From an uncultured Chlamydiae bacterium (GTDB lineage: Bacteria; Chlamydiota; Chlamydiia; Chlamydiales; Parachlamydiaceae), in NCBI GenBank assembly GCA_963754655.1, contig CAVWGN010000001.1:32001-96000 (forward strand): DNA of 64,000 nt, written 5' to 3'. Position 1 is the first letter of the stretch. Each line of letters starts with the position of its first letter. Under the pieces are notes generated by a model. That model was not told the origin of the DNA. It made no database searches and worked only from the letters and a program-made list of their open reading frames with translations. The position numbers and the translations under genes were made by a program. Below, in pieces: positions 28,168 to 31,284 of the stretch.

Positions 28168-31100
28168 ATGCATAGTTCAGTGGATTCATCCAAGGGGATT
28201 TCAATCATTTCCTCTGTTTCACCTAGAGAGACTATCCAAGCTGAGGTAACAAAGTCTGGTTCACTCTCTCAAACCAATCCCGGCATAGGGATTATTCCTA
28301 CTCAGTCGATAAATAGTGCACCGCACATCGACTTCAGTGCAAAAATACTTGTAAAAACAAATACGCTAGACGAAAGTCCAACTAAAAATCAAGCGATTAT
28401 CAGTAGGGCAGAAGCTCTTTTAAAAAAAATAAAAATGGACCTTGCTTTAAACACTTTCCATAAGCAGGAAACAAAGACTCCCAGAGACTATCCTTTAGAG
28501 ACAGAACACACGGCGTATAACATTCCAAAAGAAAAAGTAAACGAAAAAGATTCAGAACAACAAAGCGATTTCGAGATATCAACAGAAAAACAAGAAGAAA
28601 TCACAACGCATCAAAAAAAAGATAAACAAAACTATTCAAATCTATCAGATGATGATGAAAATACTCCCCGAAAGACGAGAGATAAAAAGCAACGAGCTTC
28701 TTGGACGTCAGGGGAATGGAAAAGACGTATCACGCAACAATCTTTACCTGGTGATGATTCTATTAGACCTTGTGATGATTCTATCAGTTCGATAAAGCCT
28801 TTCTCAAAAAGCCATCCCGATTTGCTATTAGATCTCAATCTAAAACCCATTCAAACAAAAGATGAATCTATAGAAACAACACCAAGACAGCCTGATTCTG
28901 ACACACTAAAAGAAAAACAAAAGGGTCATCCTGCGTCGCATTACTATTCCTTATCCTCCTATCGGGATTTAAAGAAAAAAAGAGGAAGCTTGTTGGATAC
29001 AGACAAAGCAGATACTGACAAAAAAGATAAAAAACCACTTTCCAACGATATAGCGAGCGGTCACACAAGAAATTTCTCTTTAACAGAAGAAAAATCGCAT
29101 CAAAATCTAGCAACAAACCTGTTTGTATCCCATGTTGATTCTACACATGTTCCTACTCCATCTAAAAAATATTTAACTTTTCTAAAGTCTCAATCTATTG
29201 AGCAAATAGCCAATAAAAAGAAAGATGCTATAAACTCGCCACATCAAAGTCCAGAAATAGCACATTCTCTTACCTCAAAAAAATCAGATTTTGATCCAAC
29301 ACAAACAAATAGAACCTTAAAAACCGATGTTTCTTTTAAAGCCGTTAAATATTCAGCGTCAAATAGAGAAACCCCCGACTCTCCTCCAAAAAAGGTAAAA
29401 GAACCACAGGAAGAATCCTTCAATCGAAGTTTAAAGAAAAATAAGACAAGAATTCTTTTGGATACAGATAAAGATGATAAAAATCCTTCCTCAGATTTAG
29501 AAATAACCCCAAAGAGAAATTCTTCTCCACCACAAACGGAATTGAAACATTCAAAACAATTCTCTTTATCCTTTACTGATTCTATGGACACTCTAAGACC
29601 TCGATCAAAAAGCCATCTTAATAGAACCTCTTTGCTACAAAATACATTGGATGAGAAAACACCTTGCAATTCATTTAAAAACTCAGAGGAAGCTGGCAAT
29701 GTCTCACAGCAATATCAACCTACAAACAGTGGAATTGATAATGAAAATTTAAATCCCCCTGAATCTGAATTAAATGAAATAGAAATGATCCAATATGAAT
29801 TAAGTGAAATAGAAGCAAAGATCTGTCAGGTCATCATGAATCCACAAGGTGTTTATGGAACCTTAGTAAAGAAAATTAAAGAACTCAACACCTTATACAC
29901 TCACACAATACAGCTTAAAGATACCCTAACCCAACATCACCACCCTAATATTCCGATCGAAATCAACACTCGAATCTCTTATTTGATCAAAGAAATCAAC
30001 ACATTAGGGAGTGATTATTCTACAAAATATTTTAAACCCATTTCGCAGATTATCCAGAACAGTTCCCATGAATGCTATACCTTTGGATTTGTCAATGAGT
30101 TAACTGATTTATTAGTTGAATTTCCTGACACATTGTTCTGGATTGAATCTTACAATCCCGCATGCCTCAATCAAATACACCATCTTTTTAAAACTAGTTT
30201 GTCACAAACCCTTCAATTTATTATCAATAAATTTGATAACGAGAATGATAAGAGACAACAAACCGTTCAGCTATTGCTTGAAGCTCGCTCAAGCTATCAA
30301 TTCTTAGCTCAACAAGATAGCAGTTCTGGGAAAAGTTGGGCAGATTATCAATCAGACATATTGAATCAGTTAAAGAGTCACTGGTTTCAGCAAAAGAAAA
30401 AGATAAGGGAAGAGATAGAGGAAGAGGACCTCATCGATATCATTAGTGTACAACATTTTTTAGATAAAATTTCCGAGGAGAAACGAGATAAATCTTTACA
30501 AACTTTATTAGACAAAAATTCTGAGGAAAAACGAGATAAAGAGTCTCACGAACTTGCAAACTCTTTCTCTTCGACTATTTTTAACTTAAGGATAAAAAGC
30601 CTTGCTAATTTAGAAAGTTTGTCTTCTGATGAGACATCTTTAGAACAACTCTCTTCTGCAAAGTATGCATCCCAACTTTTAAAAGAGACTATTGACTTGT
30701 CGGAAGATCTTTCTCGCTTTGTGGTCCATTCTATTGTCTCTAAAAAGGGGATCTCCCAGCGTGCACACTTAATAGAAGTCTTTAGCATGTGCATACAAAA
30801 ATGTCTTGAATTAGGGGATCTAGAAAGTGCAGCTGCACTTGCTAGAGGAATTGCAAATCAATCTATAAGTCGCTTGCATAAAACATTTGACACCTTGAAA
30901 GCTTCCACTCAAATGAATATAGAAACATTTTGTAAATTTGTTTCTCCCGAACATAATTTTATAGACTACCGCACTTATGCTGATCACCATCCCCATGTTA
31001 TTCCCTGTTTAGCTGTACTCCTTAAAGATCGTGAGGCTACGTTTGCAGGTAACAAAGAGGCCTCTCTAAAAAAATGGAAAAAGAAAATTGAAGAAGAATT

Positions 31101-31284
31101 TCTCAGAATTACTTTCCATTCCCAATTGCATAGACTGCATCAAAAGACGCTAGGAAATAACATTTTCTCTATTCAAGATCTAGAAAGTTATCTGCATGAA
31201 CAACGATACAGAATTTCACCAGATTCAGAAGCAGTTTTTCAAAGAGCTCGACATTTAGAAAATTTAGAAAAAAATAAGACTTAG
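28168..31284 (+). CDS. Large putative effector with disordered N-terminus and C-terminal RasGEF (CDC25)-like domain
   Basis: ~30690-31080 encodes VVHSIV..QRAHLIEVF..CLELGD..ISRLHKTF..SPEHNFIDYR..IPCLAVLLKD..GN. Confidence 0.75.
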   Translation: MHSSVDSSKGISIISSVSPRETIQAEVTKSGSLSQTNPGIGIIPTQSINSAPHIDFSAKILVKTNTLDESPTKNQAIISRAEALLKKIKMDLALNTFHKQETKTPRDYPLETEHTAYNIPKEKVNEKDSEQQSDFEISTEKQEEITTHQKKDKQNYSNLSDDDENTPRKTRDKKQRASWTSGEWKRRITQQSLPGDDSIRPCDDSISSIKPFSKSHPDLLLDLNLKPIQTKDESIETTPRQPDSDTLKEKQKGHPASHYYSLSSYRDLKKKRGSLLDTDKADTDKKDKKPLSNDIASGHTRNFSLTEEKSHQNLATNLFVSHVDSTHVPTPSKKYLTFLKSQSIEQIANKKKDAINSPHQSPEIAHSLTSKKSDFDPTQTNRTLKTDVSFKAVKYSASNRETPDSPPKKVKEPQEESFNRSLKKNKTRILLDTDKDDKNPSSDLEITPKRNSSPPQTELKHSKQFSLSFTDSMDTLRPRSKSHLNRTSLLQNTLDEKTPCNSFKNSEEAGNVSQQYQPTNSGIDNENLNPPESELNEIEMIQYELSEIEAKICQVIMNPQGVYGTLVKKIKELNTLYTHTIQLKDTLTQHHHPNIPIEINTRISYLIKEINTLGSDYSTKYFKPISQIIQNSSHECYTFGFVNELTDLLVEFPDTLFWIESYNPACLNQIHHLFKTSLSQTLQFIINKFDNENDKRQQTVQLLLEARSSYQFLAQQDSSSGKSWADYQSDILNQLKSHWFQQKKKIREEIEEEDLIDIISVQHFLDKISEEKRDKSLQTLLDKNSEEKRDKESHELANSFSSTIFNLRIKSLANLESLSSDETSLEQLSSAKYASQLLKETIDLSEDLSRFVVHSIVSKKGISQRAHLIEVFSMCIQKCLELGDLESAAALARGIANQSISRLHKTFDTLKASTQMNIETFCKFVSPEHNFIDYRTYADHHPHVIPCLAVLLKDREATFAGNKEASLKKWKKKIEEEFLRITFHSQLHRLHQKTLGNNIFSIQDLESYLHEQRYRISPDSEAVFQRARHLENLEKNKT

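Follow-up and report, generated by a model that had tools for sequence, protein, structure and literature searches.

A divergent RasGEF-domain protein of a Parachlamydiaceae chlamydia: domain, relatives and candidate role in the host

Does a long open reading frame (ORF) in a chlamydial chromosome encode a true CDC25-homology domain, the catalytic domain of Ras guanine nucleotide exchange factors (RasGEFs), and if it does, what might such a protein do for a bacterium? The question is raised by a 1038-amino-acid ORF, whose product is here called P0001, in a 64,000-nucleotide stretch from an uncultured Chlamydiae bacterium (GenBank assembly GCA_963754655.1, contig CAVWGN010000001.1, positions 32,001 to 96,000); this whole stretch is referred to as the window, and all coordinates are counted from its first letter. 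The original prediction, made from the letters of the DNA, had described a CDC25 pattern in the C-terminus of this ORF behind a disordered region, and had proposed a secreted activator or decoy of host Ras/Rap/Ral GTPases.

The CDC25-homology domain of P0001

The gene and the two parts of it on which the analysis turns are placed as follows.

28168..31284, + strand: RasGEF-domain gene encoding P0001 (1038 aa, stop codon included; from the ORF list and its translation)
30463..31281, + strand: complete CDC25-homology (RasGEF catalytic) domain (aa 766-1038; from Pfam, predicted local distance difference test (pLDDT) values and VIA-align)
31009..31149, + strand: helical hairpin, catalytic in CDC25 domains (aa 948-994; from AlphaFold2 (AF2) helices, the alignment with 7nzz_A and column majorities)

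The Pfam RasGEF profile PF00617 matched P0001 at aa 833-966 with an E-value of 1.1e-22 and 81.3 bits (gathering cut-off 23.1), spanning profile positions 34-170 of 181, and in a genome-wide profile search P0001 was the sole match to this family in the 3.16-Mb genome (84 bits). When PDB sequences were searched with phmmer, the 10 distinct matches at E <= 0.01 were all CDC25-domain GEFs; Candida Cdc25 was the best of them (7nzz, 2.8e-8), and Epac2, RasGRP1/2/4, RalGPS1 and RasGRF1 were included. The motif string quoted in the original prediction was present letter for letter (V852, I856, R865, F872, C879, L882, G894, ISRL at 900-903, KT at 905-906, SP at 926-927, NF at 930-931, YR at 934-935, IP at 945-946, D954 and GN at 961-962).

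An AF2 model of aa 561-1038, built on a 70-sequence alignment, had a mean pLDDT of 74.7; values were mostly 80-98 over the last ~270 residues and 50-70 over the ~200 before them. Compared with PDB structures by Foldseek, this model had 56 matches at E <= 1e-3, and among the matches listed all were CDC25-domain GEFs. In VIA-align the model was closest to RasGRP2 (in its complex with Rap1B; Z 24.2, root mean square deviation (rmsd) 2.5 A, 227 residues), with the RasGRF1 Cdc25 domain at Z 23.3, Epac2 at Z 23.0 and SOS1 at Z 20.7; over all structures compared, Z was 20-24 and rmsd 2.5-3.7 A, with 219-235 residues aligned at 14-25% identity. Because model residues 207-478 superposed on SOS1 768-1024 (the whole catalytic domain with its hairpin) and on all of RasGRF1 1023-1259, the tail of P0001 is, on the predicted structure, a genuine and complete CDC25-homology domain, hairpin included, at aa ~766-1038. 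The span first proposed, 30690-31110 (aa 841-981), does hold the domain core but falls short of the full domain at both ends, and the profile and SOS1 comparisons by which the original prediction was to be checked both returned clear matches. As the Z scores for Rap-, Ras- and Ral-specific GEFs lay within about four Z units of each other, the fold does not tell the GTPase target apart.

Residues conserved throughout the family were largely kept. All four columns of the 70-sequence alignment with at least 90% conservation were retained in P0001 (R902, L903, R935 and P946), as were the further family-wide residues A797, E822, R865, N930, D954, G961 and N962. The earlier remark that several conserved positions are substituted was also borne out, the departures from the alignment being N846E, P943H, L955R, F957A, N975E, K978F and S1027A. 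The hairpin, with helices at model residues 388-400 and 403-434, carries the motif D-R-E-A-T-F-A-G-N, and its second helix is altered. From the 7nzz_A alignment and the correspondences given in PMC10470544, the equivalent of Sos1 L938 is E956 and that of Sos1 E942 is A960. According to that paper, the highly active Candida Cdc25 (CaCdc25) has Thr (T1230) at the L938 position and His at the E942 position, its H1234A mutant retains activity (3.3e-2 vs 4e-2 per s), and the E942-equivalent residue is Ala or Val in S. cerevisiae and C. glabrata (PMC10470544). Since these active fungal proteins lack Glu there, A960 is no sign of inactivity, though the other hairpin changes may still affect it.

Compared with the eukaryotic CDC25 GEFs (SOS1, RasGRF1, RasGRP1/2/4, Epac2, RalGPS1a, Rlf and fungal Cdc25), P0001 thus has the same catalytic fold and the shared motifs R..FI..C, ISRL.KT, NF..YR and IP...L.D....GN. 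It is unlike them in its low sequence identity, in having no detectable REM domain and no DH-PH, EF-hand/C1 or cNMP modules, in its hairpin (Glu at the Sos1 L938 position, Ala at that of E942, and a second helix without the I-N-F-x-K pattern) and in the bacterial context of its gene.

Ahead of the catalytic domain, three further regions were distinguished.

28168..28467, + strand: N-terminal ~100 aa, Ser/Ile-rich, the proposed type III signal region, paralogous to a small ORF upstream (from composition and hydropathy)
28468..29802, + strand: disordered linker rich in S/K/T/D/E with basic clusters (aa 101-545; from composition and a charge-hydropathy plot)
29848..30462, + strand: all-helical region shared only with the metagenomic protein P0002, described below (aa 561-765; from AF2 helices, pLDDT 50-70)

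The ~500 aa of disordered, S/K/T-rich sequence described in the original prediction agreed with both measures applied: aa 101-560 contain 12.6% S, 11.7% K, 8.5% T and 21% hydrophobic residues and fall on the disordered side of the charge-hydropathy boundary, so that this part of the protein is predicted to be disordered. Pfam gave nothing for it at E <= 1. A tblastn search with aa 1-560 turned up no paralogue in the organism's own genome at E <= 1, and P0001 showed no internal repeats at E <= 0.01.

The helical region occupies the position where a REM domain would be. Compared as a profile with 21 REM regions by hhalign, aa 561-797 reached a probability of 2%. A language-model protein-atlas look-up with aa 545-775 gave RasGEF/RasGEF_N-associated clusters at 0.79-0.83, a range often reached by shuffled proteins, and an AF2 model of aa 540-779 alone, on a 2-sequence alignment, had a mean pLDDT of 51.6, too low for a meaningful fold comparison. 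The region may hold a structural analogue of the REM domain.

Relatives of P0001 and known bacterial RasGEF proteins

A full HMMER pass over 1.84 billion representative proteins gave 225 matches at E <= 1e-3, only one of which, besides P0001 itself, fell below 1e-10. This protein, P0002, is 603 aa long, bears the name 'hypothetical protein' and is encoded on a 37-kb contig of a JGI/IMG metagenome; by BLASTP it matches aa 606-1031 of P0001 at 29% identity (E 1e-51). It has the same helical region followed by a CDC25 domain, the same Glu at the L938-equivalent position, and the hairpin residues D954, E956, G961 and N962 in common with P0001. It differs in its N-terminal region, which is ~190 aa long against 560 aa in P0001 and is not shared. 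The next named matches after P0002 were eukaryotic (chytrids, an aphelid, Anaeramoeba and an ichthyosporean). A word-based homologue search returned the query itself only, and a search of genome contigs with the alignment of P0001 and P0002 found no further relative. By these sequence comparisons P0001 is very divergent and a near-orphan, its single relative among the 1.84 billion proteins standing at 29-32% identity.

Within the family Parachlamydiaceae, a query of aa 561-1038 matched 7 of 73 genomes (its own included) at E <= 1e-5, the best non-self match having 26% identity (E 1.1e-10), and gave no match in three congeneric genomes; a query of aa 1-100 matched its own genome only among the 73. 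Nor did any genome of the order yield a close homologue of P0001. The RasGEF family itself (PF00617) was far from rare. It turned up in 20 of 61 relatives, and a survey of 400 genomes of the order had it in 77; of 48 other genomes in the family 26 carried it, and of 14 control genomes none. One congener (G002) carries four RasGEF-domain genes (at L007, L022 and two further places), none of them close to P0001. RasGEF gene content turns over quickly within the genus.

In a quick maximum-likelihood tree of 69 domains, P0001 paired with P0002 (SH-aLRT support 99), and the two grouped loosely with other chlamydial RasGEFs on long branches, with a weak support of 76. This pattern is compatible with an old chlamydial radiation of RasGEF domains, in a tree that does not separate one acquisition from several.

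RasGEF proteins are already known in chlamydiae and in Legionella, and P0001 adds a divergent member to this known kind. The RasGEF call on it is a correct and well-supported annotation rather than a surprise. In Kebbi-Beghdadi et al. 2019 (PMC6925127), Wcw_1131 of Waddlia chondrophila is described as a 74-kDa, species-specific RasGEF protein that is type-III-secreted and found on the inclusion membrane, and the Parachlamydiaceae are named among the families bearing RasGEFs. On that description, Wcw_1131 resembles P0001 in that the Pfam RasGEF domain is its only recognisable feature, in being species-specific and in belonging to an organism with a type III system; its best database matches are eukaryotic RasGEFs at ~30% identity. 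It differs, again by description, in its size of 74 kDa and inclusion membrane location, where P0001 has 1038 aa, a ~450-aa disordered linker and no hydrophobic segment. That the domain is reported in amoeba-associated bacteria such as Legionella, as the original prediction had stated, is borne out by two articles: legG2/lpg0276 is tabulated as 'Ras guanine nucleotide exchange' among effector candidates (PMC2824747), and a Legionella RAS-GEF effector family is mentioned (PMC8442362). LegG2/lpg0276 is like P0001 in that an intracellular bacterium associated with amoebae carries a RasGEF domain of eukaryotic likeness, but it belongs to another phylum, and its secretion system is Dot/Icm type IV rather than type III.

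In the literature searched, no functional study of lpg0276 was found, and the Waddlia paper was the only one to turn up on a chlamydial RasGEF protein; the literature found reports no activity or client GTPase for a chlamydial RasGEF. Chlamydial RasGEF proteins are frequent, and only one has been studied experimentally in the literature found. What is particular to P0001 is its near-orphan status, its remodelled hairpin and its lack of a detectable REM domain. With the last two features it would offer a useful contrast case for asking whether bacterial RasGEF domains activate their GTPases or trap them.

Candidate role in the host cell

The genome consists of two contigs (3.16 Mb, 38.8% GC), with the gene on a contig of 3,123,268 bp. 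It encodes four ATP/ADP translocases, and the nearest named relatives of its PutA are from metagenome-assembled genomes labelled 'Parachlamydiaceae bacterium' (72-77% identity). The source is an amoeba-type Parachlamydiaceae chlamydia and not Legionella, and the secretion route of P0001 would therefore be type III. Two type III components were found above their curated cut-offs, SctN (TIGR02546, 640 bits, cut-off 604.75) and SctV (TIGR01399, 914.9 bits, cut-off 692.25). Profile searches with PF07201 (HrpJ) and PF03504 (OmcB) gave zero matches in any genome, controls included, and a TIGR02516 search of the genome gave sub-threshold secretin matches only.

The only matches to the GTPase family PF00071 in the genome were LepA and IF-2. 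A bacterial client GTPase was rejected on this account and, as the genome holds no Ras-type GTPase, any client must be a host protein. Eight of the first 18 residues of P0001 are Ser, and no signal peptide or membrane segment was apparent in the protein, in which the maximum 19-residue mean hydropathy was 0.83. In amoebae, macropinocytosis, phagocytosis and motility are governed by GTPases of the Ras and Rap type, and these are processes that an intracellular bacterium must subvert.

Given a type III system in the genome, no sign of a Sec signal on the protein and Wcw_1131 as a precedent, we think it somewhat probable that P0001 is a translocated effector which engages GTPases of the host's Ras/Rap family, nucleotide exchange being its likeliest activity. 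The short Ser-rich N-terminal region would carry P0001 through the type III system into the host cytosol, where the ~450-aa disordered linker with its basic patches and the ~200-aa helical region might position or regulate it. The CDC25 domain (aa ~766-1038) would then bind a host GTPase of the Ras subfamily (Ras, Rap or Ral type), and its helical hairpin would open the nucleotide pocket, letting GDP out and GTP in, so that the host GTPase would be switched on where or when it should not be. That P0001 is secreted, which GTPase it meets and that it catalyses exchange rather than merely binding are parts of this scheme that we infer, as are the words 'secreted' and 'activator or decoy' in the original prediction, whose interpretation is supported as far as in silico testing reaches.

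Several observations weigh against a delivered exchange factor. The PF00617 match sets in only at profile position 34, which leaves the first of the structurally conserved regions weak; the gene is absent in three congeners and is therefore dispensable for the genus; and the N-terminus is put forward as a type III signal from its composition. No Pfam match to RasGEF_N (REM, PF00618) was found in P0001 at E <= 1, and a REM domain was present in 22 of 27 related (eukaryote-like) proteins scanned. The hairpin is the most divergent part of the domain, and departures cluster there: at position 955 Leu, present in 63% of aligned sequences, is replaced by Arg, at 957 Phe (71%) by Ala, at 975 Asn (88%) by Glu, and at 978 Lys (80%) by Phe. 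These same four hairpin changes, and the want of a detectable REM domain to brace the hairpin, would fit a secreted GTPase trap or decoy, in which the CDC25 fold docks host Ras/Rap but the remodelled hairpin brings about no productive exchange, and the GTPase is sequestered or held nucleotide-free, with signalling damped and not activated. We consider this, the main rival, unlikely. RalGPS needs no REM domain to work, nor does the Cdc25 domain of RasGRF1 in isolation, and other chlamydial RasGEFs are likewise without one in Pfam terms (0 of 16 chlamydial RasGEF segments). Further in favour of a trap is the acidic residue at the L938 equivalent (E956) and not at the E942 equivalent (A960), but Ala or His occupies the E942 position in very active fungal Cdc25 proteins (PMC10470544) and the L938 position is variable among active GEFs (T1230 in CaCdc25). 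A bolder reading of the hairpin, to which we give a rather low probability, makes P0001 and P0002 a separate bacterial CDC25 subclass, in which the acidic hairpin residue has shifted by one turn of the helix (both proteins having Glu where Sos1 has L938), the I-N-F-x-K pattern is lost from the second hairpin helix and a new ~200-aa helical module stands in place of the REM domain. If this were true, such proteins could lock host Ras/Rap nucleotide-free, or act on clients outside Ras/Rap/Ral, and an inhibitor or a re-targeted switch would have been made from an activator fold.

Two other explanations do without a working effector. The gene might be a relic, either not secreted or without function, in which a eukaryotic domain acquired horizontally long ago persists with no host delivery and no role in the interaction; its absence in 3 of 3 congeners and the lack of a close homologue in 72 other family genomes would suit this, as would the position of the locus at a synteny breakpoint beside a mobile palindromic repeat, and an upstream partial duplicate that may be a decaying copy. 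We judge it quite improbable, however, as the 3.1-kb frame is intact and preceded by a Shine-Dalgarno-like site, and as the GC content at third codon positions (GC3) of 0.28 is inside the range of neighbouring genes (0.28-0.38, at its low end), so that the gene is not compositionally foreign. That P0002 has kept both the helical region and the core of the domain, at 29% identity, also argues for constraint, and a RasGEF kept in the bacterial cytosol would be without a client. Assembly contamination, with eukaryotic DNA of the host amoeba mis-joined into a bacterial contig, could account for the fact that the nearest named relatives of the domain, P0002 apart, are eukaryotic, but we accord it a negligible probability: the gene lies well within a contig of over three megabases, between rpoN and a dicarboxylate symporter gene that are 57-79% identical to the copies in congeners, it has no introns, a bacterial ribosome-binding site and a GC content like that of its neighbours, and the region upstream of it contains a repeat that this genome has at 138 loci. 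An effector acting as an exchange factor on host Ras/Rap-family GTPases remains our preferred reading of P0001.

Surroundings of the gene and the rest of the window

Immediately upstream of the RasGEF gene lies a tandem duplication.

28092..28170, + strand: leader with a Shine-Dalgarno-like AGGGGGA and ATG, the downstream copy of the duplicate (from direct repeats and alignment)
27551..27928, + strand: upstream leader copy (27551-27628) and a 100-aa ORF (ATG at 27626, stop ending at 27928; from repeats and BLASTP)

The two leaders are linked by direct repeats of 66 nt at 77% identity (D1) and 22 nt at 91% (D2), spaced by 541-542 nt, and the duplicated stretch takes in the leader, the ribosome-binding site and the first codons. 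Elsewhere in the genome no copy of the leader was found, these two sites being the only ones. The product of the 100-aa ORF is 29% identical to the N-terminus of P0001 over 70 aa (BLASTP, pairwise E 4e-6), a likeness seen in pairwise comparison only, and has no Pfam match. Either the ORF is what a decaying partial duplication has left, or it encodes a second small protein with the same expression and secretion module. A promoter and terminator scan gave no difference from shuffled sequences.

In the congener stretches examined, neither rpoN nor the symporter gene was ever followed by a UDP-glucose pyrophosphorylase (UDPGP) gene, the small ORF or this RasGEF gene. With the flanks conserved in congeners but these genes not beside them there, the segment at 25.4-31.3 kb is lineage-specific and stands at a synteny break. 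Directly upstream of the RasGEF locus, at 25459-27111 (+), this segment also encodes a 550-aa protein with a hydrophobic N-terminus and a eukaryote-type UDPGP domain (PF01704, E 1.8e-16). The protein was not found in the three congeneric genomes at E <= 1e-20, and its gene is possibly another one of eukaryotic type that is specific to this lineage.

Also inside the lineage-specific segment, at 27221-27530, is a near-perfect palindromic repeat of ~250-310 bp resembling a miniature inverted-repeat transposable element, whose arms (27254-27359 and 27395-27500) are 95% complementary. The arms each hold a module like the Acido-Lenti-1 RNA (RF01687, gathering score 37), scoring 36.4 bits at 27296-27350 on the + strand and 29.8 bits at 27404-27458 on the - strand, both below the gathering score. 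Five of the genomic copies of the repeat are within the window, the other four being at these positions.

about 6755-7139: further copy of the palindromic repeat
about 12908-13208: further copy of the palindromic repeat
about 39859-40160: further copy of the palindromic repeat
about 58641-58942: further copy of the palindromic repeat

A transposase of the IS481 type (59490-60623, - strand; rve, HTH_32 and LZ_Tnp_IS481 domains) adjoins a palindromic repeat.

The rest of the window is ordinary chlamydial chromosome, with genes for PutA, UvrD, RpoN, an ABC exporter, GspD/E/F, NqrA and a GroEL paralogue. The 860-aa secretin encoded here is not the type III secretin; it belongs with GspF and GspE to a type II secretion cluster (46734-52140, - strand) and is the sub-threshold TIGR02516 match mentioned above. 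A 518-aa protein made up of seven DUF4116 repeats (PF13475, E 7e-114) is encoded at 8023-9579 on the - strand. Six ORFs of 291-462 aa had no Pfam family at the thresholds used and are possibly lineage-specific or of effector type.

13753-14952: ORF without a Pfam family
22166-23041: ORF without a Pfam family
38450-39769: ORF without a Pfam family
40798-42081: ORF without a Pfam family
52161-53549: ORF without a Pfam family
56127-57446: ORF without a Pfam family

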